From positions 139,637 through 203,636 of the forward strand of contig CAYMOT010000002.1 in NCBI GenBank assembly GCA_964392315.1: 64,000 nucleotides of DNA, read 5' to 3'. A program made the position numbers and the translations under genes. Each line of letters opens with the position of its first letter. Positions within the stretch are counted from its first letter, which is position 1. This DNA is from an uncultured Candidatus Saccharibacteria bacterium. Lineage in GTDB: Bacteria; Patescibacteriota; 4484-211; JAGQKX01. The notes under the pieces were generated by a model, which saw only the letters and a program-made list of their open reading frames with translations, made no database searches and was not told where the DNA came from. Shown here in pieces: positions 2 to 40,218 of this stretch.

Positions 2-964
2 GGAAAACGTTATTCATTGCACGAAGGTATCGTCCAAGTTCCAGGTATTGCAGTTAACAATAATGCTGACATTCCTCGCTATCGTGCGGGGAATCTCAAG
101 CTTGTGTTTGGTGTCGTGTTTTCGCTGGACAAAGAGTCAGTAGATGAGCTTAACGCGCTGCAGCAAACGGAATACGATTTTTCAAAAATGAACGGACTTA
201 AATATGGATTGAGCGGAGCCGTTGAACAACTTGCGTACTATCATGATGTTTTGCATACATATGCAGATGATTTGCAATTAGTTCGTTCTCGCGCAGACTA
301 TGAAAATCTGGCCGGCAAGATAGGAATGCTTCTGCACTTAGAAGGGATAGATTATATTTCAGATATTTCCTTACTTGAATCGTTTTATAAAATGGGAGTG
401 CGAAGTGTCGCAATGACGTGGAGAAATAAAAATATTTTTGCTTCGGGAAATAATGTGGAAGGTGGTTTGACCGATGTAGGAAGAGAATTGATAGCAAAGA
501 CACGAGAACTCGATATGGTTTTTGATCTGGCACACGCTAATCCACAGACGTTTTGGGATGCAATGGAAGCTATTGATTTTCCTTTCATGGTCTCGCATAC
601 ACTCGTCAATGCGATTAAAGAAAACTCACGCAATCTCACAGACGATCAGATAAAGGCAGTGGCTCAGCGAGGTGGGGTCATCGGTATTGCGACAATCCCT
701 GATTATATGACTGGCGATTCAATGGATGATTATGTTGACCAGTTTGACTATATCTTGAAATTGGTCGGAGAGGATCATGTTGCGTTTGGTACTGACTTTG
801 ACGGGTTGGTCGATCCGACTGATCGTTTTGTGCAGGGATTTGAAGACGCGTCAATGTATCAAAATGTGTTACAGGCTTTTGACAAACGAGGTTTCTCAGA
901 ATCCACTATTGAGAAGATCGCGTATAAAAACGCTGAGCGGTTAATCTTGTCAGCGCTTTCCTAG
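2..964 (+). CDS. Membrane dipeptidase (peptidase M19 family), 5'-partial. The frame is open to the window start.
   Basis: C-terminal motif GEDHVAFGTDFDG matches the M19 'G.DHVG.GSDFDG' signature; VSHTLVNAIKENSRNLTDDQIKA..GGVIGI matches the M19 core. The N-terminal HxD motif is absent, so the gene starts upstream of the window. Confidence 0.7.
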   Translation, partial: GKRYSLHEGIVQVPGIAVNNNADIPRYRAGNLKLVFGVVFSLDKESVDELNALQQTEYDFSKMNGLKYGLSGAVEQLAYYHDVLHTYADDLQLVRSRADYENLAGKIGMLLHLEGIDYISDISLLESFYKMGVRSVAMTWRNKNIFASGNNVEGGLTDVGRELIAKTRELDMVFDLAHANPQTFWDAMEAIDFPFMVSHTLVNAIKENSRNLTDDQIKAVAQRGGVIGIATIPDYMTGDSMDDYVDQFDYILKLVGEDHVAFGTDFDGLVDPTDRFVQGFEDASMYQNVLQAFDKRGFSESTIEKIAYKNAERLILSALS

Positions 965-969
965 GTTCT

Positions 970-1881
970 ATGATTATAGATGTGCATACTCACGTTGGAT
1001 TTAATGCGAAGCGTGCATTTAACGGTATTCACCCGTTCTGCCAATCAGCTCAGGATTTGGTGCGGAAGATGGACCAGTTTGGCATTGATACAGCAGTCAC
1101 TTTTCCCTTCGAGCCTACTCTATATGATGACCCGAAAGATTACTACACCCTTATTCCAACAGGCTTAATGGAGTATCCGTATCAATATGAAAATCGGCTT
1201 CTCATAGATCAAGTGAAAAAATTTGGCAAGGATCGTTTGATTCCGTTTGCATGCGTCGATCCACTACGAGAGGTTGATAAACAAGCAGCACAATTACGAG
1301 CATGGGCAGAAGAGGGTTTAATTCGTGGTTTTAAAATTCACACAAAAAGTATGCAAGCAGATGGTAGAACTATGATTAATTCGCCATTTGCTGCTATTGC
1401 GGAAGAGTTCAAGCTGTCAATGCTGTTTCACACCTATATGCAAGAGGTTGCGCACCCGCTGCATGTGATGGAGTTTGTAAAAAACCATTCAAGCATCCAT
1501 GTGTGTATTGCGCATGGCGGTGGGTTTATTCAAGAGTTTTATGATGAGCTGGAGAAAGTAAACCCACAGAATTTTTTCATTGACCTCTCCCCTACTACAG
1601 CACTCCTAACTTTTATCCGGAAAGAATCAAAAGAACGGGGATTTACGGTGTTAGATCTGCCGTATGAAAACCCACAAGAAGTTGTCCAGCAGATGGTAAA
1701 GAACTATGGGGAATATATTGTGTTTGGGACTGATGAGCCGTTCACCACCTACATTAATGATTTAGAAGGTGGGTCGATCATATCGGATATGGGAAAAGAG
1801 TTAGAGATATTTAGATCGCTGTCTACAGAAGATTTTGAAAAAGTAACTGACAGTAACCCGAGACGGTTTTTGCATCTTTAA
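970..1881 (+). CDS. Amidohydrolase-family metal-dependent hydrolase (TIM barrel)
   Basis: N-terminal IIDVHTHVGFN (the HxH metal-binding start typical of amidohydrolase 2); 303 aa; lies 5 nt after the dipeptidase stop, so likely in an operon with it. Confidence 0.55.
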   Translation: MIIDVHTHVGFNAKRAFNGIHPFCQSAQDLVRKMDQFGIDTAVTFPFEPTLYDDPKDYYTLIPTGLMEYPYQYENRLLIDQVKKFGKDRLIPFACVDPLREVDKQAAQLRAWAEEGLIRGFKIHTKSMQADGRTMINSPFAAIAEEFKLSMLFHTYMQEVAHPLHVMEFVKNHSSIHVCIAHGGGFIQEFYDELEKVNPQNFFIDLSPTTALLTFIRKESKERGFTVLDLPYENPQEVVQQMVKNYGEYIVFGTDEPFTTYINDLEGGSIISDMGKELEIFRSLSTEDFEKVTDSNPRRFLHL

Positions 1882-1936
1882 GTTCAGGAAGATGGAGAGA
1901 AACAGGAGCCGGTTCGGCCGGCCCCTGTTTGGGTTA

Positions 1937-3484
1937 CTACTTGCGCCAATTGGCGCGTTTTTTCATCCAGTTGACGATGCCTTCAAGCTCCGAAGGCTCT
2001 TTTTCGATGGCGATTGGATGGAGTCTCCACCCGCCGAGAACCATATCGAGTTGCGAGCTGACAAACCCTCGCAGGAAACACTGTCCAGCAGGGCTGGACA
2101 GGAGCGTAGCAGCATCTGTCTCGAGGGCTGCCTGCTTCTCTCGAAGCGTGGCGCGTTCAGGGTCTACTTCCGATCGTGCTCCTGCGACCGCTTGCTGAAC
2201 TGCTTCGCGGGTTGGGGCTTTCTTTAGTGCACTGAGCAGGCGAGGATTTAGTTGTTGCACTTCTTTCTCAGCCCACCGACGCAGTAGGTCTTCGTCTTCT
2301 GGCGCCTCCAAGTCGACTTGCTCGCGAATCGCTTTTGCCCGGTGACTTTGCTCTTCAGCGAGCTTGTTCCACGCCTCGTACATTTCAAGCAATCGGTTGA
2401 CAGTAGGAGCGGCCCAGTCTGGCGTCCAAAAGTACTTGAGATGATTAGACGGATGAAGGACGTACGTCACATCCTTCGGAAGCCCGAGTGGATCTGCAAG
2501 CAGGTCCCACAGCTGTTCGATTTCGGCACGACGCTCAGCGGATTCGTCATCATCGAGCAGGTACGTCACCATCGAGGTCCCGCTGATGTGATGGACCAAT
2601 TCGCCGCCTGACCGAGCGAGCTGTGCCATCACCGGCAGCACGACATAAGCCGTTGTGTCAAGAATTGCTCCACTCATACGAAATAAGTCGGGTTTCTCAC
2701 CCGGCTTACTAAGAATCTCCGCAATGTACTGCATGAGCTGGAGCGCGATTTTCGACAGTAGTTCTGTCGGTATCTGCGGTCCTCCGTGGTAGCGCGTCCG
2801 GATCGGGCCAACGTCTCGTAAGGGCCGGCGTACACCTTGTTCCACCCACTCGTAAAAGTGGCGAGGCAGATGTTGGGCGATCAGTGCAAGTGCCTCCGGG
2901 AGTTTATCCCATGACAGCAGAAACTCACTCGCACTTATCGGATTAGCGTGCGGGAAGGCATAGCGTAGCATACTGTAGTGATACTGCGCAGGCGTCTGCG
3001 CATGCACCGCAAGCAGCCCTGGTGGAACGATTCTTTCAAGCTGGCAAGCCACTTCCCATTGCATGCCTCCCTTTGAGGCAAGTCCGACGATGGGGTTGGG
3101 CAATACCGAACCCATCATACCGCTCCAAACACCGAGCAATTCTTCCCACTGCTGTTGCAAGCGTGCAGTGAGTAGAAAACCGGGTTGGAACGTGTAGGGT
3201 GGCTTAGCCCAGATTGCCGCAGGACCGATAACCTGCCCATCGTGGCTGACGATAAGGCTCGCGCCGTCATAGGTCAACGTGTCGACAGGGTATGCACCGT
3301 CGCCAGCGGGGGTGAACTCGTGCTGAATGAAATCCAGCCCGTGGCCACCTAACGCTGCAAGAACGGCTAGCCGCTGGCTGTTTTGTGTGCCAATATGAGA
3401 TGAGGTCCCGATTGGGACACCACCATCCAAAGCTTCTCGTAGTCGGTTGAGGGGATCATTGCCTCTTACTATTGTGAAAGCCAT
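1937..3484 (-). CDS. Hypothetical 515-aa protein, GC-rich; paralog of the 6808-8241 gene (unknown family, HHISGTSM motif)
   Basis: Longest ORF in a visibly GC-rich segment. GGAGG Shine-Dalgarno 7 nt upstream of the ATG at 3484. Ala/Arg/Leu/Pro/Trp-rich composition unlike neighbouring proteins. N-terminus MAFTIVRGNDPLNRLREAL aligns with MPINFVNGSQITLRESLEF of the 6808 gene; shared ..YAFPH.. and ..SGTSM.. blocks. Confidence 0.7.
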   Translation of the reverse strand: MAFTIVRGNDPLNRLREALDGGVPIGTSSHIGTQNSQRLAVLAALGGHGLDFIQHEFTPAGDGAYPVDTLTYDGASLIVSHDGQVIGPAAIWAKPPYTFQPGFLLTARLQQQWEELLGVWSGMMGSVLPNPIVGLASKGGMQWEVACQLERIVPPGLLAVHAQTPAQYHYSMLRYAFPHANPISASEFLLSWDKLPEALALIAQHLPRHFYEWVEQGVRRPLRDVGPIRTRYHGGPQIPTELLSKIALQLMQYIAEILSKPGEKPDLFRMSGAILDTTAYVVLPVMAQLARSGGELVHHISGTSMVTYLLDDDESAERRAEIEQLWDLLADPLGLPKDVTYVLHPSNHLKYFWTPDWAAPTVNRLLEMYEAWNKLAEEQSHRAKAIREQVDLEAPEDEDLLRRWAEKEVQQLNPRLLSALKKAPTREAVQQAVAGARSEVDPERATLREKQAALETDAATLLSSPAGQCFLRGFVSSQLDMVLGGWRLHPIAIEKEPSELEGIVNWMKKRANWRK

Positions 3485-3802
3485 CGTAACCTCCGTTTAC
3501 AGAAATTTGAAGGGGCGTGCTTCGAATACATCCGTGTCAGGGGATGACACAAGAAACAATAAACCGCGGAAGCAGCACGGTCGTGTTCCTTATCGGTTTT
3601 CGTGACGATGCACGTCGGATCCTGCGGGGAAACGCATTGATTCCTCAATCGTTGGCGTTTAATCCGATAGAGAAGAGATAGTGTTGGGTACTATCATTTG
3701 GAGAGATATGTGCAGGTGGTGGGGATTCTAAGCGAACTTAGGAGGAGGAGAGGGGAAAAAGAGAGGAAGGTACAAAGGGGAAAGGAGTTAATAAGCGTTC
3801 AT

Positions 3803-3838
3803 TTACATATTTGTACTATTTGCATATTTGCTTATTTT
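3803..3838 (+). promoter_or_regulatory. Copy of the TTGTAC-TATTTG promoter-like motif (-35 TTGTAC, 16-nt spacer, -10 TATTTT) with no plus-strand gene downstream
   Basis: ATTTGTACTATTTGCATATTTGCTTATTTT. It lies between two minus-strand genes, so it is either an antisense/sRNA promoter or a protein-binding site used in either orientation. Confidence 0.3.
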
Positions 3839-3904
3839 CTCCTCCCCCACTTATACCGATTCCTCGTAAGTTGTTAATGTTCCTGACAAAGAGGCAGTGG
3901 ATTT

Positions 3905-6016
3905 TTAGATGAGCGTTTGCTCAAGATATGCATTGCCGGTTGATCCGTTGAAGTAAAGCGTGTAGAGCAGCGGGAATCCTAAAAAGCTCAAAAAACGATT
4001 ATGTTTCCCTTGTTGTGGCCTATAAAATTCTTCGAGTACATTAACAACAGCAGTTTTTTCGTTATTGCTCTGTTGCATGATTGCATCCAGGTAAGGTGTT
4101 TCATTGATTGATTGCTGTAATCTCGAGAATGTCATTGGTGTTTCTTGAATTAACTCTTCGACAAGTGCATCGCGTTTGGCAGGCGATAATTCATGCTGAT
4201 ATACCTCAACCATCAGTTCGTGTAAATTGGTGCTATCCGAATTTATGCCTTCGAGACGATGCACTGGGTTACGCTCTAGATACATTGATTGCAGTAGCGA
4301 TGGATAGCGTTTATACAGAGTGAGCGCAATGTCAAATAAAATGCATCCACTCACAAACTCGCCATTATAATCCTCTATCAACTCAATTACCTTTTGTCCG
4401 TTATCGTAGGTTAAGTAAATATTATTTCCTTTTTCCAGAACAGAATATGCTTCTGAACCTGAATGATGTGTCAGAACATATTTCAAGATATCGTGAGAAA
4501 GTGCTTTTACTACAGGGCTTGATTCAAGTGTCAACTCGTCAAGTGGGTACCCAAGATCCTCTAACATTTTGAAATACGTGTCGTAATTGATACGGTTGAT
4601 CACATGGTATTCATCAATCATTGCAGTACGTTCGATGCGGAGCGTAGGATTTAGCTTTGTAATAACATCGATTACATAATTTGCGATGAGTACTCCTGCA
4701 CGTTGGGATAAGCCTTCGTTTCTGTCTGCATGCACGTGTGCGGTCTCGATGTTCATGGCGGTATGACTCAACGCCAATTGTTTCACTACTTCACTTTCCT
4801 CAAGTCCTGTTTGTGGAAGTTTTGTATTCCAATCGACCGGGAAATATTCTTTTATAGTACCGGTGCGCATAACAACGCTTCCGGACCGGATTTTTTGGGT
4901 GGCAAACCACTCCTGTAGGTTGTTCGCCGGTAGTATTTTGCCGGTAGATCCTTTTTTGTTAAGCATCTCTTCAAACTCATTCGTGCTTTGAAAGGAAGTA
5001 GTAATGTCCGTTGGAATCAACAATACGATATCTTTCTGCCCTATTTGTAGCTGTGTAGATTGGAAAGGCGTTGCAGAATGACCGCCCAGTGAATAGTCAT
5101 TGTGCTCAGGAGAAATGACATGGGTAAGTTTTTTGGTAAAAAAATCTTCTGCGCTTTTGGGAGAAAGTTGCACTATACTTGCATTTCCAATGAGCACGGT
5201 CTTGACATATCGTATGCCGTCTTTTACATATTCTTGTGCGCCGATGAATCCTATACCTTCTGCAATTTTGCGAAGATATGCATAATAATCGAGTAGCAAA
5301 TTAGATACCTCAAATGGGTATTGTGTCAAAAAACGCTCGTACACGTCTGCCAATTCTTTGATCTCAGGTCGGGATTCTTGTGAATCTCCATTATTCGTGA
5401 ATACGCAGGCAACGATATTATCGGTTTTGTTTTTGTATACTGCTATGTAATTAGCGTTTATTTCACGCCTGCCTTCAGTATTACTTTCAGAGTGGACAGG
5501 TAAGTATTCAGTAGTATAGCCTCTATCGACGCCGCGCTCGTTAATTGCCATAAGAAATCTGTGAAAGTCTTTGCACTGCCGATATGTCGTTTCCGCATCT
5601 AAGATGGCATCCTCATCGTTTTGTTCTTTTAGAACTGCATCCAATCCCATGATTCTGGAAAAATGGCCAAATTCATCCCGGATCTCATGCTTTTGTGCGG
5701 TTTCTTTATCAGTAAGACAAAGCTCGTTAAAGGGTGTACCAAATTCCAATAGCGCAGAGATTTCGCTTTTGATCTCTTCGGTATAGGGCTGATTTAGTTC
5801 TAGCTGTGAAAAGATAGTCTCTAACGTAACTGAAGCGCCATTTTTGGCACTTTCTGCGAGGATCATGAGTTCTGCTTTGGTTAGCTCATAAAATTGTTGT
5901 TGTTTATTAAGGGGTAAGGCATAAAAGATATCGACATCTAAGCCTTTAAAGTCGAGCACGAGCTGTGCTACCCCCTGAGGCAGGGTGTGAGTTTTGTTTG
6001 CTATTACATTTTCCAT
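3905..6016 (-). CDS. Hypothetical 703-aa protein (AT-rich; no recognisable domain)
   Basis: Long intact ORF with Lys/Asn/Ile/Glu-rich composition typical of the host. A perfect TATAAT lies ~23 nt upstream of the ATG. No SD. It sits 40 nt downstream of a minus-strand tRNA, so co-transcription is possible. Confidence 0.65.
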   Translation of the reverse strand: MENVIANKTHTLPQGVAQLVLDFKGLDVDIFYALPLNKQQQFYELTKAELMILAESAKNGASVTLETIFSQLELNQPYTEEIKSEISALLEFGTPFNELCLTDKETAQKHEIRDEFGHFSRIMGLDAVLKEQNDEDAILDAETTYRQCKDFHRFLMAINERGVDRGYTTEYLPVHSESNTEGRREINANYIAVYKNKTDNIVACVFTNNGDSQESRPEIKELADVYERFLTQYPFEVSNLLLDYYAYLRKIAEGIGFIGAQEYVKDGIRYVKTVLIGNASIVQLSPKSAEDFFTKKLTHVISPEHNDYSLGGHSATPFQSTQLQIGQKDIVLLIPTDITTSFQSTNEFEEMLNKKGSTGKILPANNLQEWFATQKIRSGSVVMRTGTIKEYFPVDWNTKLPQTGLEESEVVKQLALSHTAMNIETAHVHADRNEGLSQRAGVLIANYVIDVITKLNPTLRIERTAMIDEYHVINRINYDTYFKMLEDLGYPLDELTLESSPVVKALSHDILKYVLTHHSGSEAYSVLEKGNNIYLTYDNGQKVIELIEDYNGEFVSGCILFDIALTLYKRYPSLLQSMYLERNPVHRLEGINSDSTNLHELMVEVYQHELSPAKRDALVEELIQETPMTFSRLQQSINETPYLDAIMQQSNNEKTAVVNVLEEFYRPQQGKHNRFLSFLGFPLLYTLYFNGSTGNAYLEQTLI

Positions 6017-6056
6017 TTGCTTATTTGTTTGTTTGCATATTATAAATTTGTTGACT

Positions 6057-6133
6057 TGGCTCCCCGGGAAGGATTCGAACCTCCAACCAACTGCTAAGAA
6101 TACAGCCGCTCTGTCCTATTGAGCTACCAGGGA
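6057..6133 (-). tRNA. tRNA, anticodon read as TCT (Arg); atypical anticodon loop (AUUCUUA, U at position 37)
   Basis: Cloverleaf folded by hand. Acceptor TCCCTGG/CCGGGGA, D stem GCTC/GAGC, T arm GGAGG-TTCGAAT-CCTTC, encoded CCA. The anticodon stem GCTGT/GCAGT needs two G-U pairs. Confidence 0.6.
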
Positions 6134-6142
6134 TATAAATAA

Positions 6143-6190
6143 ACCTCCGGTGAGGGAGGTTCTGGTTCTTTTTTTATTTTTTTAATTTAA
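6143..6190. terminator. Intrinsic terminator hairpin ACCTCC-GGTGAG-GGAGGT followed by a T-run (bidirectional context)
   Basis: Perfect 6-bp stem plus TTCTGGTTCTTTTTTTATTTTTT on the plus strand; A-rich on the other side. Confidence 0.55.
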
Positions 6191-6526
6191 TTTTAGCGAG
6201 AACCCCCTATACCGTCTTTGTGATCCAGAGGACCATAAAGAAAAAAGTAATGAGACCAATAAGCATATGCTTGCTGGCCTGGGGGGTACGATAATTTGTT
6301 GTTGCTAAAATTTGGGTCATACGTCGGCTTTCTCTTATAACAGAAATTTGGCAAATCTGTCAACAGGTTTTTTGACAGAGTTAGAATACTTGTGGTATAT
6401 ACGTGTTTCATGGAAACGTCCTTATCGAGTATACAACCAAAGCGTTGGCACCAATATTATGGTTACCGGTTTACCGCGGGAGGTCTTTTCATGTTCTAAA
6501 TCCATATACAAATAAATAAACGAAGT

Positions 6527-6556
6527 ATGTTGCCTCCCGAACGGGAGGTTTTTTTG
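6527..6556 (+). terminator. Intrinsic terminator CCTCCC-GAAC-GGGAGG + TTTTTTT
   Basis: GC hairpin immediately followed by 7 T; 12 nt after the stop of the small ORF 6312-6515. Confidence 0.55.
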
Positions 6557-6637
6557 TATATGGGCACATTAACAACTAAAGTATAAAGACGGGTCACGTG
6601 TAAATTATCCGGTACAAATATTTCTTTTTGCATGTTT

Positions 6638-6681
6638 TCATTTGCTTAATTGTACTATTTGCATTATTTGCTTATTAATTT
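6638..6681 (+). promoter_or_regulatory. Sigma70-like promoter carrying the recurrent TTGTAC-TATTTG motif (-35 TTGTAC, 17-nt spacer, -10 TATTAA)
   Basis: TTGTACtatttgcattatttgctTATTAA lies ~125 nt upstream of the SD-supported start at 6808. The same motif recurs in >=10 intergenic regions. Confidence 0.5.
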
Positions 6682-6807
6682 TTGCCTGTCCCCTCTTTGT
6701 AACCCCTCTATCCTCGTTTTTATAAAGCCACTTTCCTCTTGTGGCAAAACCGCCCGGTTTTACAAATCCTCGCTTGTTTGGGAGCACACGTAAAAAGGAG
6801 TAGATCA

Positions 6808-8241
6808 ATGCCAATCAATTTTGTAAATGGTTCTCAGATTACACTGAGAGAAAGTTTGGAGTTTAACGGCCGCGGCTCTCGAACGCCGCATCCCGGTTGG
6901 GAGAATACGATGACCACGATTCTTGCCCAACTTGGGGTACCTATTGAATTGTGTTGGGAAGTGCGTGCAGATCTGAAAGGGTATCGCGTGACACATCTTG
7001 GCGGTCATCGCATATCGCAGGACGACGCGAAGTGTGGTCCGTGGGCGCAGTTTGATGTGGTGAAGTGGGCAACGGTCAGGGCCACCTTACCTGGCAGTGT
7101 TCAATCGGTCGTTTCAACCTGCTGTACGCCGTTTCAAGCACACATGGCACTAGCAAAAGCAGCGTTTCCGCACATACAAACATCGGCTGATCTGTACCTT
7201 CGTCACGGCGAATTGGTGCAAAAAGCGCTAGATGTGCTTGCTCATAGTAGGTTTCGTGAGCATTTTGCGAAATATGTAGACGGCCAAGGGTATCTGCATC
7301 CAATCTACCAGGCACATGGTAATACCGTGTATTACCAGGGAAACCAAAAGGTGCACGCCCCACACCTGGAAGGCGGGTATATGAGACTCCTTGAGTTTGT
7401 GAAGGCGTCACAGAAGCACGGCGCCCAGGTTGCCTATCCCGCTTGGGGAGTGCTTCCTGATGCGCGGATTCTATGTCTACTGGATATGGTGGTGTATGCA
7501 CTGAGTGGGAATATTGACCACGTGTATGCGTGGTCGGGCACGTCGATGATGCAATACATCCTCAAAGAAGCTGATTCACAGCGGTGGCGAGAGATTGTGT
7601 CAGGGATGTATGACTTGGTGCGGCAACGTGCTTTGCCGGAGTTACCACGAGTATTAGATTTCACGCTAATACCTACGTTGGGTTTGGGTGATCTGGCTGT
7701 GACAGATGCAAGCATGGCGCAAGCAGTTAATACCCAACTGTGTCAGTTAAATGTTGCGGGAGTACGTGAGGAGCGGACAGACAAAGTTGGTTTGCAGCAA
7801 ATGGCGCGTGATGATGCGTATGCATTCTTGGCGCACATTGCTTTGTCCCTGGAGCCAAACGCGTGCACTGAGATTGCTCAGATGCTTGATGACGGCAATT
7901 GGCAAGGTGCCGGCGGCAAAGCTTCGGCATTGATATCTCTGCGCAGCAAAAAGCAGCACGTATGTGATCGGCATGTGGTTGAGGCTGAGTTAGGAGAACT
8001 GCTGCGAGATAACACCGGAAGATTTGTCCTTGCCAATCAACCGGCAGTAGATGCGCTGGCGTATGCAAACGGTACGCGATTGCACCTGTTGGTGGGTGTT
8101 TTGGATATTCCGGCAGGTAAGTTTGATTCGTATCGGGCGCGATTGGCAAACATCGCGTCGAGAGGGCAACGTAAAAATACTTCTCAAGAAGATGGTCCTC
8201 TCTTGCCCTATTTCAATAGAGCTGGGTGGATGCTAGAGTAA
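6808..8241 (+). CDS. Hypothetical 477-aa protein, GC-rich; paralog of the 1937-3484 gene
   Basis: AAAGGAG SD 8 nt upstream of the ATG at 6808 (the ORF track start at 6739 is probably too early). N-terminus and the internal AFPH / AWSGTSM blocks align with the 515-aa protein. GC-rich. Confidence 0.7.
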   Translation: MPINFVNGSQITLRESLEFNGRGSRTPHPGWENTMTTILAQLGVPIELCWEVRADLKGYRVTHLGGHRISQDDAKCGPWAQFDVVKWATVRATLPGSVQSVVSTCCTPFQAHMALAKAAFPHIQTSADLYLRHGELVQKALDVLAHSRFREHFAKYVDGQGYLHPIYQAHGNTVYYQGNQKVHAPHLEGGYMRLLEFVKASQKHGAQVAYPAWGVLPDARILCLLDMVVYALSGNIDHVYAWSGTSMMQYILKEADSQRWREIVSGMYDLVRQRALPELPRVLDFTLIPTLGLGDLAVTDASMAQAVNTQLCQLNVAGVREERTDKVGLQQMARDDAYAFLAHIALSLEPNACTEIAQMLDDGNWQGAGGKASALISLRSKKQHVCDRHVVEAELGELLRDNTGRFVLANQPAVDALAYANGTRLHLLVGVLDIPAGKFDSYRARLANIASRGQRKNTSQEDGPLLPYFNRAGWMLE

Positions 8242-8250
8242 ATAGGAGGT

Positions 8251-8293
8251 ATAAAAAAAAGCCGGCCGCCCACAAGGGGCGTCCGGCTTTTTG
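8251..8293. terminator. Bidirectional intrinsic terminator (A-run, AGCCGGCCGCCC-ACAA-GGGGCGTCCGGCT hairpin, T-run)
   Basis: Sits between convergent genes (6808-8241 + and 8365-8754 -). GC-rich stem flanked by A8 and T5. Confidence 0.6.
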
Positions 8294-8364
8294 CGATTAG
8301 AGCGACATCATGTACGCAAGTCGCTCCATCTGGTATTCCAATTCAGCCGCACACTCACGACATG

Positions 8365-8754
8365 TCAGACCTCCTCGTTGAAAACATAACCGAGCCATTG
8401 CAGCACGGGGCGGACATACTTGCCGCCGCAGTCGAGCCAGATAACCGAACAGCTCGCGACATCGAAAATGCCAAGAGCCACTTCCTGCTTCTGGACGACT
8501 GTTCCTTCCTGGTAGCCCATTTGCTTCAGGGCCTCGATCACGGTCGGGGTGACCGACACGCGATTAATCAAGATGGCGCCATATCCGCGTCGCTGGTATT
8601 CTTCGGTACCTTGGAAGTACCTTACCCAGTGTTCGATAGCGATTTTGGCGCTTTCCACATCCGCGCCGAACGAATATTGCCGTCCTTCTACGAAGGTGAA
8701 GCCGGACGTTAACCTCAGCCAGTACTCGCCGAGCGTCATGGTGGGGATTGTCAT
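8365..8754 (-). CDS. Hypothetical 129-aa protein, possibly a GNAT-fold acetyltransferase
   Basis: GGAGGTG SD 5 nt upstream of the ATG at 8754. The ATGA overlap with the upstream 181-aa gene means translational coupling. QRRGYGAIL resembles GNAT motif A (Q/R-x-x-G-x-G/A). Confidence 0.45.
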   Translation of the reverse strand: MTIPTMTLGEYWLRLTSGFTFVEGRQYSFGADVESAKIAIEHWVRYFQGTEEYQRRGYGAILINRVSVTPTVIEALKQMGYQEGTVVQKQEVALGIFDVASCSVIWLDCGGKYVRPVLQWLGYVFNEEV

Positions 8755-9296
8755 TTCCCACCTCCGACGACCGCACCGCAGCGGATGCAATAATCACGCA
8801 ATACGGCTTTATCGTTGACGAGATCTCCGAGTCGACGCGTACCGTGGTTGTGTTCACACTTCGCGTATGTCCAATAGGGTTGATCGAGAATGTTCCAACC
8901 CACGCGGGCGTACATGAAGGTCTTATAGTGAAGTACGCAAGGCGCCCACGGTATCGTTCCTTCCGGGCATACCGTAAAGGTTGCATAGTGCTCGTGGGAT
9001 ACCCGAGTCACTCTTGATATCCCTTCACTGTGCGCACGAAGTACAGCTGACGTCCACCCTGTGGGGACGTAGGTGGGGATGCGCGAAGACATGCCGAACC
9101 AATATACGCTCTTATCACCCTCAAAAATAGCAACAAGAGTTGTTGCATCGACCGAAAGCGCAATGTAATACGACATGACCTGCTCTTTTTCGATGCCGAG
9201 AATTTCTGCAACCTCGGACAGTTTGTTCCAACCCCATTTACCGAACTTGAAGGGTTGGATGTTCGGAAACCGATAAACCGCTGGTGCTACTATCAT
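8751..9296 (-). CDS. Hypothetical 181-aa protein with a C-terminal Cys/His cluster (CEHNH..CIRCG)
   Basis: AAGGAAGG SD upstream of the ATG at 9296 (ORF track start 9347 is probably too early). GC-rich. Its stop overlaps the start of the 129-aa gene. Confidence 0.45.
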   Translation of the reverse strand: MIVAPAVYRFPNIQPFKFGKWGWNKLSEVAEILGIEKEQVMSYYIALSVDATTLVAIFEGDKSVYWFGMSSRIPTYVPTGWTSAVLRAHSEGISRVTRVSHEHYATFTVCPEGTIPWAPCVLHYKTFMYARVGWNILDQPYWTYAKCEHNHGTRRLGDLVNDKAVLRDYCIRCGAVVGGGK

Positions 9297-9767
9297 ACTT
9301 TCCTTCCTTTTCAAGGATGCCTTAGGAAAGATTCGTTTAACGCCCATCGGCGTTCTGATCTGAATTGTGCATACCCTAGATGCAACGGGCCAAATCAGCC
9401 CGTGGTGTCTCCGTGAGACGAGTGAAGCTGAACATTGGGTTACTTCATCTAAGAAGTTCTAAACTGGGTGTTTAGAGCAATGCAGCAAGTTATATGGCTT
9501 GTTTTCTTTTGGTGGGAACCTAAAAAAACAAAGGTGTGAGGGGTATTGTGACATATATGCAGGGAGGCATATGTTTGTCTGGGAAGCGTCAGGTAGGGAG
9601 CCTGATTTTGCAAACGTGTGCAGTGCTTCTAATTGGTCGTAAAGACCGTAAAGCGGGGAGTCTTGGGAGAGGAGAGGAAGATAGGAAAGTACAAATAAGC
9701 AGATAAGCAAATACTATAGGACCAGCTTGGTTAAGTAAGGATCTGATTGATAAGGGTATTGAAACAT

Positions 9768-9796
9768 GAAAAAAGCCACCTTTTCCAAGGGTGGCT
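9768..9796 (-). terminator. Intrinsic terminator for the 458-aa gene (GCCACC-CTTGGAAAA-GGTGGC + T-run on the minus strand)
   Basis: Hairpin 40 nt after the stop at 9836, followed on the minus strand by TTTTTT. Confidence 0.6.
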
Positions 9797-9835
9797 CTGC
9801 GAATCGCCCGGCTGGGCCGAGCGACTCATAAATGG

Positions 9836-11212
9836 TTACTTCTTGCTTGTCAATGCGTCAAGCCAATTGGCCAAACGCTCCATCCATCGTGGAATGGGGA
9901 ATCTCATTCCCACCAACTCATCGAATTGAGAGGCAGTAACGGCTTTGGCCAACGCACGACGGATCGCGTTTCGGAAACGCAGTGCACGGATGTGAGATCT
10001 GCTCCAAGGTTGTATCTCAAATCGGGGTCTTTCACCGGGATGCCAGATTACTCCGACAGCAACACCGTCGTCTTTGTTTCCAAAGAGATCGAAGCCGTAC
10101 TGTGTACCGGCGTATTCCCCCATCCAGCGCTCGAAGCGCTCTCCTGTTCTGTTCTCCTCGTTAGGCAGGTTCTCCAGGATCGCCTCCACGATGTGCCGGC
10201 AAAGGTGTAGCGTTTCCACTGGACCATAGGGTTCAATTCCCTTCCAATCTCGTCGTGAGAATGAACGGAACACCTGAACAGTCCTTTTTGGATACTTACC
10301 CTGATTATTGGAGATTACTGTATTGCAAAATCCAACATATTCGAGAGCAGGGTTTTCCAAAAAAAGTCTGTCCACTAGCCAATACAGAATTCTCGGCAGT
10401 TCTTGTGTACCTCCAGATGGCGCGAGGAAGACGTGGGTAACAGGAAGATGCTCCATGGAATCTTGAATCGACGTGGGAGTGAAATGGTTCTTGAAGAAGA
10501 AAGTCTCAAGTGTACCCGTAATCCCTAATTCAGTCGATAAACCTGTATCCAGGTCAACACCATGATACCGGTCATCATCATCAAGGAGCTGCACGATCAA
10601 CCCAAATGGACCCGTTACCGGTCCATAATGTTGCCAATAACTGCCATTGGCTGAAGTCACCTTCCAGAAGACACGATTGATTGGCTCGACGCGTGTCTCC
10701 AGGTACGGGAATAGTTGTCGAACCAATTCACCTTGATCATGTTCGTAGGTAACCGGGATCATCCCTTTAGGCAGCCTAGGACGAGCGTATCGGTCTCCAA
10801 CCTTTAGGGCTTGGATACTTCCACCCTTTGGATCTCGGGCCATCATCCAATCGCCACCCCAGTCATAGAGTTCTTCGAGTCGACCTGTTTCTAACAGGTG
10901 GTTGTAGATATCAAAGAACTCTTGTGAAGTCATTGGCCAGCCCGTGGATGCGACTTGGACATTCCAGAAGTGTCCGATGAACGGACTTGTCCGAACGAGC
11001 TCATCGATTTGGGTGGGTATTGCTTTTAAGGCGTCCAATTTGGACATTGGAGCTGATCTCAGAAACCTCCCATCATAGGCTGCAAACGCCTCAAATTGCT
11101 CTTTCCACCAAATGTGAGAAATACCCACCGATATCCACGGTATCCTCAGATTGGTGGGCTTACCCGGTCTTACTTCGATGTACGGCTTACGTGAAACCAT
11201 CCCACTCGTCAT
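9836..11212 (-). CDS. Hypothetical 458-aa protein (GC-rich, Trp-rich, LLDDDDRYHGVDLDTGL acidic block)
   Basis: Long intact ORF in the GC-rich block. ATGA start/stop overlap with the upstream 98-aa gene. Dedicated terminator downstream. No domain recognised. Confidence 0.6.
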   Translation of the reverse strand: MTSGMVSRKPYIEVRPGKPTNLRIPWISVGISHIWWKEQFEAFAAYDGRFLRSAPMSKLDALKAIPTQIDELVRTSPFIGHFWNVQVASTGWPMTSQEFFDIYNHLLETGRLEELYDWGGDWMMARDPKGGSIQALKVGDRYARPRLPKGMIPVTYEHDQGELVRQLFPYLETRVEPINRVFWKVTSANGSYWQHYGPVTGPFGLIVQLLDDDDRYHGVDLDTGLSTELGITGTLETFFFKNHFTPTSIQDSMEHLPVTHVFLAPSGGTQELPRILYWLVDRLFLENPALEYVGFCNTVISNNQGKYPKRTVQVFRSFSRRDWKGIEPYGPVETLHLCRHIVEAILENLPNEENRTGERFERWMGEYAGTQYGFDLFGNKDDGVAVGVIWHPGERPRFEIQPWSRSHIRALRFRNAIRRALAKAVTASQFDELVGMRFPIPRWMERLANWLDALTSKK

Positions 11213-11505
11213 GACGCCACCTCCGCATGTCCGTTGCCAAGACGCAGTTGTTCGCGGACGATTTCCAGAACGTCATCGCGGACTGATGCCGTATAGGCAT
11301 CAACCCGGAAATAGAGCCCTGAGATATCGATCGTAACAAAGTTGCCATCAAGGCCTATGCGTACCGGAACAGAGGGCACTTTTAGGGGAACCGTGATCTC
11401 AGCATCCAGATCAAGCAGAGCGAGAACTTCCTCGCGACCGAACAAAACGGCCCACTTCGAATGGCCGTTTATTCCAACGGAAATAAAACGTTTGTTTGTA
11501 TTCAC
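11209..11505 (-). CDS. Hypothetical 98-aa protein (GTG start), first gene of a coupled pair with the 458-aa gene
   Basis: AAGGAG SD 6 nt upstream of the GTG at 11505. Its stop overlaps the ATG of the 458-aa gene. Confidence 0.45.
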   Translation of the reverse strand: MNTNKRFISVGINGHSKWAVLFGREEVLALLDLDAEITVPLKVPSVPVRIGLDGNFVTIDISGLYFRVDAYTASVRDDVLEIVREQLRLGNGHAEVAS

Positions 11506-12365
11506 AACATTCTCCTTACATCATCTTCTAAAGGAAAACACGTTGGCGTTCCCAGCTTCCCGGGCTGAGGGTTTTTGAACACAGTTTGATGCAACTATGC
11601 GTCGCATCGAGGACAGGCTAAAAGCGGATGCATGTAAAACCAAAATCACGCATCACACTATCCTCTCGTCTTAACCCAGTCGTCAGTAAAACGACCTGGA
11701 TTTTGAAGACTTCTCGTGTTGTCGTCACGAGCATTAAATGGACCGTTTCCATCGGGTGATGGAAATCCTACTAGGAGATTCGGCCATTCCTCACGGCCAC
11801 GGACTCGCCACGTATGACGAGCCGTTCGCAGTTGATCCAAAACTGCTTTTGGAGCTGACTGACACATCAGCTTTTTGTATGAGGGGAATTGCAGGCGCAT
11901 GCACGGTAGCCCATGCATGGCAAATATGCGGGGACAGAACTTGAATGGTGAATTCAAGGTGTTTTCTTCAATACCAGTCGGGAGACAGGTAAGGAAAAAA
12001 CGAGGGTTTTTGGTAGGAGTTTTGTCAACCTAACTGACAGGGTGGTCAGTATAACGGTTGTATTGAATCATTTGATTGGGAGTCAAATGTGTCTTTGATA
12101 GACGTATTCAATTAGAGGAATTGAAAAAGGGTGGGGGTCGAAAGAGAGAGGAAAGGTATACTTTGTGTTTTTGCCAAGAATCAACTTGATCCATGGGTTA
12201 TTAGTTAATTAACAAAGTGCACGTTTCCTCCATCTTAAGTACCTTGATCCTTTCTAGTCCTACTTTCCCTATTCCCTCATACATAATATATATAGATTGT
12301 TAATGAACGGAAAATATGGTGCGAATTATACGCGTAAATTACATATATGTAAATACTATGGGACC

Positions 12366-12930
12366 AATATGTCATTTAAAAAATGTTATAGAAAGATACT
12401 GTAGTGTATGCAGCAAAAAGCCCTCCGCATCTCCCCCATAGTTTGGAGTTGCGAAGGGCAGCTATTAGGCCAATATAGTACATGGCCTTTTTAAGTCCCG
12501 AAGGACTCGAACTATTTTCTTGGCTGGCTCTACACCGTAGCCCCAAGAGCGCCGTTCGAAGGCTGAGGAGTCCGCTACCCTTACACATGTAAGGACGGCT
12601 GAAGATCTGTTACCAGACCTTTTGTTTTGGTACGCACAAGTCGTACCCTCCGCTACTCACCTGCCCTCTTTCGATCTCGCAGGTTGCCGTATGACTTGAG
12701 TAGCCGCATAGGCTGTATTGGTGAGTATTATGATAATTCTTTTGGTTCAGGAAGTGCCGAGGGGCAGGCGATTCCAGGCACCTACCCCTCAAACATCCGT
12801 CCTCCGGTGATTCACGCCTCGCTTCGTGAACATTTATGCCTTCATGTACAACACATCTAGAGTAATAAGCTAATAATCAAATAATCCAATAAACAAATAT
12901 ACAAATAAATTGAAAGGCCTATAAACGAAT
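12366..12930 (+). ncRNA. Candidate large structured non-coding RNA of unknown class
   Basis: ORF-free 1.3 kb gap. GC-rich island (12400-12860) inside AT-rich DNA. Nested perfect helices (GCTACTC..CCTGC..GCAGG..GAGTAGC) and a pseudoknot-like GTGCC/GAGGGG..GGCAC..CCCCTC arrangement. An upstream AAATACTATGGGACC promoter-like motif and a downstream CCTCCC hairpin terminator (12932-12968) bracket it. tRNA-Leu follows. Confidence 0.3.
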
Positions 12931-12931
12931 G

Positions 12932-12968
12932 AACCTCCCTTTTGTGGGAGGTTGTGTATTTGTTTCTT
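12932..12968 (+). terminator. Intrinsic terminator CCTCCC-TTTTGT-GGGAGG + T-rich tail
   Basis: Perfect 6-bp GC stem followed by TTGTGTATTTGTTTCTTT. Same hairpin family as 6143 and 6527. Confidence 0.5.
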
Positions 12969-13236
12969 TGATTTATAAAACAAACCTCCCTATGAATAAT
13001 TGCCAATAATGACAAAAAGCATAGTATCCTGGTGCTTGGTCCAGGATGTGGAGATCTGAGAGTTGGTTGCGAAACAGCTGTACATACTAATGTGGACTAT
13101 AACGTTATTTAATATGTCCGTCAATGGGAGGTTATAATATATAAATACACCAATAATCTAATAGTCGAGTAGCCTAAATAGTAAAAATAATAATAATCAT
13201 AATCATATAAATAATAAAGATAGGCACCTATCAATC

Positions 13237-13280
13237 GATTTGCTTATTTGTACTATTTGTAGTATTTGTTTATTACTCAG
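13237..13280 (+). promoter_or_regulatory. Sigma70-like promoter for tRNA-Leu (-35 TTGTAC, 17-nt spacer, -10 TATTAC, 5-6 nt to the tRNA 5' end)
   Basis: TTGCTTATTTGTACtatttgtagtatttgttTATTACtcagG, where the final G is tRNA position 1. Confidence 0.55.
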
Positions 13281-13365
13281 GCCGGTGTGGTGAAATTGGC
13301 AGACACGCTTGGTTTAGGACCAAGTGCCGAAAGGCTTGGGGGTTCAAGTCCCTCCACCGGCACCA
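13281..13365 (+). tRNA. tRNA-Leu (anticodon TAG), class II with a long variable arm
   Basis: Hand-folded. Acceptor GCCGGTG/CACCGGC, 3-bp D stem, anticodon arm CTTGG-TTTAGGA-CCAAG, 13-nt variable arm, T arm GGGGG-TTCAAGT-CCCTC, A73, encoded CCA. Confidence 0.85.
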
Positions 13366-13432
13366 CAAAAAATAATTTCAAATAATCAAATATACAAATA
13401 AGCAAATAGAAAGAGGGTAATTTTCGAATACG

Positions 13433-40141: not shown

Positions 40142-40218
40142 GCCCCAGTAGCTCAGTAGGATAGAGCAACTCCCTTCTAAGGAGTAGGTCAGAGGTTCGA
40201 CTCCTCTCTGGGGTACCA
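40142..40218 (+). tRNA. tRNA-Arg (anticodon TCT), canonical
   Basis: Anticodon arm ACTCC-CTTCTAA-GGAGT; D stem GCTC/GAGC; T arm AGAGG-TTCGACT-CCTCT; A73; CCA encoded. Confidence 0.85.

Follow-up and report, generated by a model that had tools for sequence, protein, structure and literature searches.

Comparison with described systems

Islands of up to 13% of the genome length have been described in Patescibacteria, where most gene transfers take place between Patescibacteria (PMC12455944), and the cultivated Saccharibacteria live on Actinobacteria (PMC10633639). Among enzymes, the nearest described likeness is BshC, the cysteine-adding enzyme of bacillithiol (4wbd; PF10079/TIGR03998), whose reaction has not been reconstituted and for which an extra protein partner has been suggested (PMC5790435). 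The locus of this study lies in the genome of an uncultured Candidatus Saccharibacteria bacterium of wastewater and activated sludge (G000; 995 kb in 9 contigs, 43.2% guanine plus cytosine, GC). It was analysed within a stretch of 64,000 nucleotides on contig C2 (C2:139637-203636), hereafter the window, to which all plain coordinates refer. Between positions 1885 and 11960 the window holds the genes lettered A (515 aa), B (703 aa), C (477 aa), D (129 aa), E (181 aa), F (458 aa) and G (98 aa), with F and G in a 3.1-kb cassette (9337..12459). A first-pass annotation, made from the sequence alone, had regarded this DNA as a self-contained foreign block. We consider it fairly probable, at roughly 60%, that the block is instead the distal end of a ~53-kb GC-elevated, orphan-rich and strain-variable region, in which a conserved operon is combined with orphan cassettes. 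The observations that carry this reading are base composition, synteny, the conserved operon, the fold of A, a near-identical cassette in another background, and purifying selection.

The region as such is of a known kind, namely a flexible genomic region of a bacterium of the Candidate Phyla Radiation (CPR). Like the islands reported from Patescibacteria, it is orphan-rich, sits in a small CPR genome (relatives in the same phylum have genomes of 0.5-2 Mb), and contains a cassette that is common to related backgrounds. It differs from them in two respects. A Pfam scan that took in 38 open reading frames (ORFs) of the region found no integrase, transposase, phage or conjugation genes, and part of the region appears to be an operon inherited vertically at least since G000 split from a diverged syntenic relative, L009 (L-numbers denote the compared contigs and loci). 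The deviant base composition of a classical genomic island is present here, but mobility genes were not found, and a search from three tRNAs revealed neither flanking direct repeats nor tRNA-derived att-like repeats.

Base composition and extent of the region

GC content was profiled in 300-nt windows, and individual ORFs were compared with the 829 ORFs outside the ~53-kb region. In line with the first-pass annotation, GC switches abruptly at the stop codon of the amidohydrolase gene, from 0.43 (1651-1950) to 0.57 directly after it (1951-2250). It stays at 0.55-0.57 up to ~3450, drops to 0.38-0.45 across 3750-6750, and rises again to 0.49-0.56 across 6750-9150 and to 0.45-0.55 across 9750-11950. 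The ORFs follow the same pattern, with a GC of 0.558 for A, 0.512 for C, 0.554 for D, 0.513 for E, 0.495 for F and 0.512 for G, as against 0.410 for B. Compared to the reference mean of 0.427 (standard deviation, sd, 0.034), the GC-rich island ORFs lie 2.0 to 3.9 sd higher, a shift far beyond chance. The contrast had been judged by eye as mid-50s against upper-30s percent. The shift is real, but the background is 41-43%, and only A and D/E are in the mid-50s, F/G being at ~49-51%. GC at third codon positions (GC3) is raised as well, as had been proposed for checking: pooled over the island ORFs it is 0.538 against 0.386 elsewhere (range given 0.54-0.59; A 0.57, D 0.70).

The GC-rich DNA extends far beyond the block. 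Upstream of the window, GC of 0.50-0.59 runs unbroken from C2:98.5k to 137k. It is followed by a native-GC stretch (C2:137-141.5k) with genes for an aminotransferase, an arginase, an M19 dipeptidase and the amidohydrolase, and then by the window's GC-rich segments up to 151.6k. The block accounts for no more than the final ~10 kb of a GC-rich mosaic of ~53 kb (C2:98.5-151.6k), and the idea of a self-contained unit has to be given up. Of the 57 ORFs of at least 100 aa in the mosaic, 51 are GC-rich, whereas elsewhere in the genome just 14 ORFs exceed +2 sd. About 5% of the genome is made up of this orphan-rich, GC-deviant DNA.

Composition-normalised tetranucleotide usage, another proposed check, gave a divided answer. 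The window's GC-rich genes are host-like (r = 0.77, with background 7-kb chunks at 0.79, sd 0.07), whereas upstream parts of the mosaic are outliers (0.53-0.64). The upstream 38 kb, with this outlying signature, and the orphan cassettes look like material acquired from an unsampled pool, which agrees with the island and transfer reports for Patescibacteria (PMC12455944).

A conserved operon of B, a ligase-like gene and an M19 dipeptidase

The gene B (3905..6016, minus strand; 703 aa) was originally seen as an AT-rich orphan inserted between A and C. Our results show that it is, at native GC (0.41), the conserved partner of the ligase-like gene and has full-length homologs elsewhere, among them the 675-aa protein of L029 (E 1e-55). 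In distant lineages the operon order is a B-like protein of ~675 aa, an A/C-type gene and Peptidase_M19. This holds for L029 (675 aa, A-like 543 aa, Peptidase_M19), L039/L040 (674 aa, C-type 478 aa, M19), L041/L042 (677 aa, 561 aa, M19) and L030/L031 (419 aa, 506 aa, M19). P0009, a member of the C clade, lies within a 674-478-M19 operon, and in G012, a genome of the same order as G000, a B-like protein (34% identity to B) is directly followed by a C-type gene. The operon was seen in at least four lineages besides that of the window, and two of their genomes, of 0.8 and 1.0 Mb, are small. Several motifs are invariant in the B family ('HFSRIM', 'AH.HADR', 'D.YHV.N', 'ESSP', 'FY.PQQ.K.N').

In the window the third operon member is inverted. 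This Peptidase_M19 gene (2..964, plus strand; PF01244; GC 0.41) is cut by the window start and shares 88% aa identity with its counterpart in L009. Next to it stands the amidohydrolase gene (970..1881, plus strand; Amidohydro_2, PF04909, E 3e-16), which has native GC, forms the left edge of the first GC-rich segment, and is 89% identical to that of L009, with a proportion of nonsynonymous differences (pN) of 0.06 against 0.68 for synonymous ones (pS). B and A lie on the minus strand, convergent with the amidohydrolase and M19 genes, and C lies beyond a tRNA gene. We read A, B and C as a rearranged and duplicated copy of the operon of B-like protein, A/C-type enzyme and M19 dipeptidase.

Comparison with L009 points to descent rather than recent import. 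L009 was assembled from four runs and keeps the order arginase, M19, amidohydrolase, A, B, tRNA-Arg, C, ..., D. Between G000 and L009, the coding genes have pN of 0.06-0.26 against pS of 0.6-0.8, so synonymous sites are saturated and the window genes are under purifying selection, as expected of real genes. Despite this saturation, A, B, C, D and the GC mosaic are common to both. The synteny comparison that had been suggested, to see whether the block is absent from relatives, came out in two ways: L009 has no cassette at this site, yet it carries A, B, C and D in syntenic positions. Judged by gene order and sequence, A, B and C appear to be part of a conserved operon that was inherited and is not recent cargo. 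A point against this reading is that taxonomy is scarce for most family members and the family is rare in the phylum, so that transfer of the whole operon is possible.

A GC-deviant 'island' in the genome of a streamlined symbiont can combine conserved metabolic genes with truly mobile cassettes, and GC alone mislabels such conserved genes as foreign. The claim of horizontal acquisition stands for the flux of the cassette, which shows only 2 differences over 3123 bp in another background, but not for a single foreign block, given the conserved operon of A, B and C.

A and C as putative ligases

Gene A (1937..3484, minus strand) encodes a 515-aa class-I-synthetase/BshC-like putative ATP-dependent ligase, and C (6808..8241, plus strand) its 477-aa paralog; an ORF starting from the TTG at 6739 would give C 500 aa. 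The paralogy had been recognised before and is borne out by BLASTP (24% identity over 187 aa, E 8e-10). In a tree, A stands beside a clade of P0011-14, and C is on its own long branch in a clade with P0006 and P0008-10, which implies that the two are old paralogs and not the result of a recent duplication. Identity to the L009 counterparts is 76% for A (pN 0.14, far below pS 0.75) and 62% for C.

Window ORFs were scanned against Pfam, PHROGs, PADLOC and NCBIfam (8 ORFs; PADLOC at E<=0.1), and the island proteins, which had not been assignable from the sequence alone, match no family in any of them. For A and C there was no usable Pfam or NCBIfam match at E<=0.1, and the NCBIfam rows for window ORFs were far under cut-off. 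A word-index search of 5.8 billion proteins returned three metagenome proteins as homologs of A, two of them from L009, and A was not found in 40 species-level relatives. An exhaustive search with an A+C profile gave 217 clusters (50% identity) at E<=1e-3, of which 62 at E<=1e-10. The family occurs in 3 of 301 genomes of the phylum; its wider circle is found in both AT-rich and GC-rich genomes, including the two of 0.8 and 1.0 Mb. Among 99 members there was no shared Pfam family; five had single-member matches, and one of these was strong (HGTP_anticodon). The family profile had no sequence match in the PDB, 4wbd being out of reach at E<=1.

The fold is more informative. An AlphaFold2 model of A from a 99-sequence alignment reached a predicted local distance difference test score (pLDDT) of 95.4 and a predicted template modelling score of 0.91 (an earlier model from 6 sequences, with pLDDT 55, was not used). 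It consists of a Rossmann domain of the class I aminoacyl-tRNA synthetase (aaRS) type, followed by a long helical domain. VIA-align, a structural search independent of Foldseek, ranked BshC (4wbd_A) highest (Z 11.8; 355 residues aligned across model 1-501), ahead of class I LysRS (1irx, Z 10.4), with ArgRS, GlnRS, GluRS, CysRS, MshC, TyrRS and the cyclodipeptide synthases at Z 5-7.7. The Foldseek top 30 against the PDB were almost all from the same aaRS/BshC set, with a probability of 0.92 for BshC and none at E<=1e-3. The ESM Atlas offered as best match for A a phage Translat_reg at 0.76, under the useful level.

Class I aaRS, MshC and cyclodipeptide synthases share with A the catalytic Rossmann fold and a HIGH-like 'HIGN/HIGT' nucleotide-binding motif. 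In A this motif reads 'SSHIGTQN' (consensus 'RSAHIGN', the best-conserved N-terminal element of the family), with H30 and G32 in at least 90% of the 99 sequences, and in the model it follows the first strand (25-30) and precedes a helix (36-48). H30, G32, H169, G217 and M305 are near-invariant in the 99 homologs, and G302 and Y308 are invariant. Class I aaRS differ in that A lacks KMSKS, a recognisable anticodon-binding domain and a Pfam aaRS match. The C-terminal half of A is helical and aligns merely loosely to aaRS, HGTP_anticodon being present in 1 of 99 relatives.

BshC is like A in length (540 vs 515 aa) and in its Rossmann core with a long helical/coiled-coil domain; both are class-I-aaRS-like, with a chemistry that is not readable from sequence. 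BshC differs in that it shares ~6% identity with A and no sequence-level match, and in that the gene neighbourhood of A consists of a B-like protein and an M19 dipeptidase. The model therefore suggests that A works like a nucleotide-dependent ligase of the BshC/class-I-synthetase type while being a member of neither family, and A and C would be ligases that use ATP to activate an amino acid or some related carboxylate.

Several results weigh against this assignment. It is based on the fold and one motif, and the Pfam BshC and aaRS models gave no match. The A family has no KMSKS-like lysine motif; in its place, after the strand 296-301, stands 'SGTSM..Y' / 'SG..M..Y' (301-308). PF10079 matched nothing in G000, with control matches in B. 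subtilis, Thermus and Deinococcus, and no bshA or bshB of the bacillithiol pathway was found in G000 above cut-off (TIGR03999 best 102 bits, cut-off 273.7; TIGR04001 54, cut-off 182.5), these matches being generic GT4 and LmbE-like proteins.

B is the obvious candidate partner of A. The A/C ligases would act together with B and the M19 dipeptidase in the metabolism of peptides or amino-acid conjugates. The A family and B are unrelated by hhalign (probability 0.1%), and a complex prediction of A with B(405-703) scored 0.00, which carries no weight either way. An ESM Atlas match of B to SpoIIE/PP2C (0.92) shared only 114-120 of 256 features and is at most a lead. Contigs from RNA libraries cover parts of A, B, C and the flanks, and none lies on 8407-12609; their depth is low, and DNA carry-over is possible.

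What had been three 'orphans' is now a testable unit: a large unnamed family (at least 217 clusters) together with its fixed protein partner and the M19 dipeptidase. Since the BshC reaction is unsolved, a related system with a candidate partner could help both problems. More speculatively, and in our judgement improbably, the B-like/ligase/M19 trio might be an undescribed amino-acid-ligating system of ultra-small bacteria, with BshC-like chemistry and a dedicated partner, whose ligase genes are in this clade duplicated, strain-hypervariable and held GC-high by recombination. If so, the trio could make or recycle a small peptide-like or thiol-like metabolite, and the duplicated, hypervariable, GC-high ligases would point to diversifying selection at this locus, which might have to do with the episymbiotic way of life. 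The B/ligase/M19 system and the persistent GC3 excess described below are the parts worth following.

Causes of the raised GC content

Part of the GC excess belongs to the protein family. In all 7 lineages examined, the GC of the ligase gene is 2-7 points higher than that of its B and M19 neighbours, mainly at codon positions 1+2, and the ligase family is intrinsically Gly/Ala/Arg/Pro-rich. In G000, L009 and G012 the A/C-type genes stand 12-15 GC points above their B neighbour, GC3 included. The GC3 of A is 0.54-0.62 across G000, L009 and L013, over which aa identity falls to 54%; in L013, whose A-clade member is more distant, GC is 0.565 and GC3 0.62. This GC3 excess of A (0.57 vs 0.39) goes beyond amino-acid composition and persists in all three lineages although synonymous sites are saturated, which counts against our main reading. 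For the raised GC we infer mixed causes: family composition, a further clade excess that includes GC3, and, for the cassettes, a GC-richer shared gene pool.

Alternatively, GC might be kept high at this place through GC-biased gene conversion, or through alleles replaced again and again from GC-richer relatives, L039 being one (~50% GC; C-type gene 0.556). High GC would then be a by-product of a recombination hot spot and not a mark of origin. We regard this as possible but rather unlikely. It would account for the persistence of the high GC3 of A in three lineages and for the 12-15 points over the B neighbour. It also fits the strain variation seen in X3, a DNA run in which depth counts the contigs at least 95% identical to the window. 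Depth is 41-44 where GC is native, against 2-7 over A and 14 over the cassette, so that the GC-rich segments are the strain-variable ones; diverged replacements of the same length occur inside A in X3 contigs, and segments of 99.9%, ~75% and no identity lie side by side. Conversely, the divergence of A from L009 (nonsynonymous rate, dN, 0.155) falls within the 0.065-0.25 of its native neighbours, which fits simple vertical descent. One X3 contig links positions 6639 and 12918 on opposite strands, its shorter side measuring 36 nt. The entire block from C to the cassette lies between these positions. The join may reflect another strain with an inversion or some other arrangement, or it may have arisen artificially from the shared hairpin repeats.

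Somewhat less plausible still is a classical island from a high-GC donor, for instance an actinobacterial host of a Saccharibacteria epibiont, that was partly ameliorated and later interrupted by native DNA. The codon positions are suggestive: under the Muto-Osawa/Lawrence-Ochman regressions, the first two positions of A and C (GC1 and GC2) point to a source of 57-65% GC and GC3 to one of 48-53%, the order expected from amelioration. Actinobacteria are the hosts of the cultivated Saccharibacteria (PMC10633639), tRNA genes flank the mosaic, the upstream part has its outlying tetranucleotide signature, and the upstream part carries UPF0182, a family that is patchy in the phylum (14 of 301 genomes) and also has matches in Corynebacterium. 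However, the first-pass proposal of a high-GC host or partner as donor found no donor. The operon of A, B and C is conserved in other lineages at ordinary local GC, including the two sized genomes (0.8 and 1.0 Mb); B is A's conserved partner and yet has native GC; and the GC-rich genes of the window carry a host-like tetranucleotide signature. Among 5.8 billion proteins F has no homolog, and homologs of A are restricted to a few metagenome contigs. The mobility genes (integrase, transposase) of an island were not found among the 38 ORFs scanned, nor were direct repeats, and the mosaic is older than a split that has saturated synonymous sites. A neutral single import would need an initial GC3 of ~0.9-1.0 (a rough estimate), which is just possible for an actinobacterial donor. 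A conserved operon beside exchanged cassettes accommodates these results better.

Orphan pairs and a probably mobile cassette

The remaining genes of the block are lineage-restricted orphans in two coupled pairs, whose 4-nt overlaps agree with the couplings read earlier from the sequence. One pair is D (8365..8754, minus strand; 129 aa) with the fast-evolving E (8751..9296, minus strand; 181 aa), the other F (9836..11212, minus strand; 458 aa) with G (11209..11505, minus strand; 98 aa) upstream of it. None of the four has a family in Pfam, PHROGs, PADLOC or NCBIfam. The right end of the GC-rich DNA (11658..11957) holds small ambiguous ORFs, either 99 aa on the minus strand or a called 68-aa gene on the plus strand (11738-11944).

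D is 68% identical to its counterpart in L009 and 75% to that in L015, with pN 0.22 against pS 0.59; E is 45% identical to a 172-aa gene of L015, and the C-terminal part of C is 46% identical to L015. G and the 68-aa product, in contrast to these values, are 100% identical in L015. The same holds at the DNA level: window 9300-12499 (3.2 kb) is 99.5% identical to L015-L019, with 16 differences. Fourteen of these lie in junction zones of ~40 bp (9305-9336 and 12460-12495), and the inner 3123 bp hold the other 2. The flanks in the L015 background are about 75% identical or unalignable, with neighbour genes that are 45-75% identical or unrelated, and none of the six genes upstream in L015 has a counterpart in G000. 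An identical F protein occurs on 12 contigs in two contexts. In L009 the cassette is missing at this site, and a CDP-alcohol phosphatidyltransferase gene fills the slot, which is bounded by E and by a conserved element close to tRNA-Leu.

The best explanation for this pattern is that D/E and especially the G/F cassette are lineage-restricted orphans turned over by recombination between co-occurring relatives. D/E and G/F would occupy a variable slot beside tRNA-Leu (the cassette between E and the tRNA-Leu region) and be exchanged among relatives there. The near-identity of the cassette across diverged backgrounds suggests that co-occurring Saccharibacteria exchanged genes very recently, and no recognisable mobility gene lies close by; the direction in which the cassette moved we can at most infer. 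A point on the other side is that the L015 background is known over 12.6 kb only, so that L015 might be a distant lineage or equally a conspecific strain whose locus is hypervariable.

Could the turnover instead be driven by phage or host conflict, with G/F, and perhaps D/E, as a new defence, toxin-antitoxin or host-interaction module? The layout of a small and a large gene with a 4-nt overlap would suit such a module, as would a variable slot adjoining a tRNA, near-identity in two genomic backgrounds with absence from a third, and the orphan status of the pair. In a search of 5.8e9 proteins F found itself alone. Against this stands the lack of any match of G/F in PADLOC, Pfam, PHROGs, NCBIfam, the PDB, or phage or plasmid records, and of any recognisable nuclease, NTPase or toxin motif in F/G. 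The defence or toxin cargo proposed in the first-pass annotation likewise drew no PADLOC family for the 8 ORFs. We consider such a module doubtful, and prefer the exchange of orphan cassettes by recombination.

Between C and D, at 8254-8362 (C2:147890-147998), lies a remnant of a very GC-rich gene of 132/135 aa that is present between C and D in L009 and L015. The gene has a GC3 of 0.75-0.81, and here its last 21 codons and the downstream DNA remain, which indicates that it was deleted in this lineage. The same interval contains a GC-rich palindromic hairpin (8256..8292) between the convergent C and D, with 16-nt arms that are 94% complementary and are flanked by A and T runs; it is likely a bidirectional terminator.

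Assembly soundness and occurrence

The genome is metagenome-assembled and its GC shifts abruptly at gene boundaries, but a chimeric contig joining two organisms, which we had been urged to check, is refuted: there are at least six GC switches and not one, no N gaps in or near the region (the closest N run being at C2:228265), a Logan contig of 113 kb (L014; run ERR2586217, possibly the window's own source sample) that is 100% identical over 21.4 kb spanning all junctions, the same joins and mosaic in L009 from four runs (A 0.54 vs flanks 0.43), and presence of the stretch in many independent studies. At least half of the sampled words of the stretch are present in 12 runs. The runs holding the stretch come from 14 studies, all of wastewater, sludge or bioreactors where labelled.

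The upstream region, tRNA genes and repeats

The 38 kb upstream of the window (C2:98.5k-137k), with GC up to 0.59, contain genes for a 1068-aa UPF0182 protein, a 613-aa HATPase_c protein (MORC/HSP90-like), a CitMHS transporter and a cold-shock-domain protein, besides dozens of family-less ORFs; these four were the sole Pfam matches among the 38 region ORFs scanned. In L009 the CitMHS segment is replaced by a Na+/H+ antiporter. A stretch of 9.2 kb is 94% identical to a contig of another Candidatus Saccharibacteria bin (G041; 2.8 Mb, probably mixed), and window 1885-11960 had no match in this bin, which is incomplete or mixed. Small GC-rich islets lie elsewhere in the genome at C3:76.7-82k and C5:32.7-34.4k, with ORF GC of 0.60-0.65 and GC3 up to 0.81; the C5 islet adjoins a 100-N scaffold gap. 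The other GC-rich spots of the genome were considered as rRNA, with no rRNA match.

The tRNA genes were called with ARAGORN. The tRNA noticed earlier between A and C is a tRNA-Arg(TCT) (6057..6133, minus strand), which was also found with Rfam (54.5 bits) and is a second copy within the window, 73% identical to the one at 40142-40218 (plus strand). It has a T at position 37, normally a purine, and two G-T pairs in the anticodon stem. It is identical at 77 of 77 positions in L009 (7345-7421) though the flanks differ, and it adjoins B in G000 as well as in L009, an adjacency not seen in L029 and L030. A tRNA-Val (C2:96724-96800) lies near the left edge of the mosaic, and a tRNA-Leu(TAG) (13281..13365, plus strand) just outside its right edge, beside the variable slot in L009 too. 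Upstream of these two tRNAs is a 21-nt inverted match (20/21; C2:96807-96827 vs C2:152890-152910, window 13254-13274), for which a promoter element common to both tRNAs is a likelier explanation than an attachment site.

An AT-rich period-8 repeat ('AATAA.CAAATA'-like) at 12861-12907, with copies at 9691-9713, 13141-13163 and 13378-13400, is found in the intergenic DNA around tRNA-Leu and within the cassette, and a 17-nt inverted pair lies at 9688-9704 / 13238-13254. An X3 contig skips 12909-13238. A tmRNA was considered at 12946-13156 and rejected, at 14 bits against a gathering score of 47. The non-coding stretch 12924-13049 near tRNA-Leu, which this tmRNA hit overlaps, is 78% conserved in L009 (2221-2349). 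A hairpin lies within it at 12932-12953 ('AACCTCCC....GGGAGGTT'), and hairpins of a similar CCTCC/GGAGG type are present at 6142-6161 and 6532-6549.

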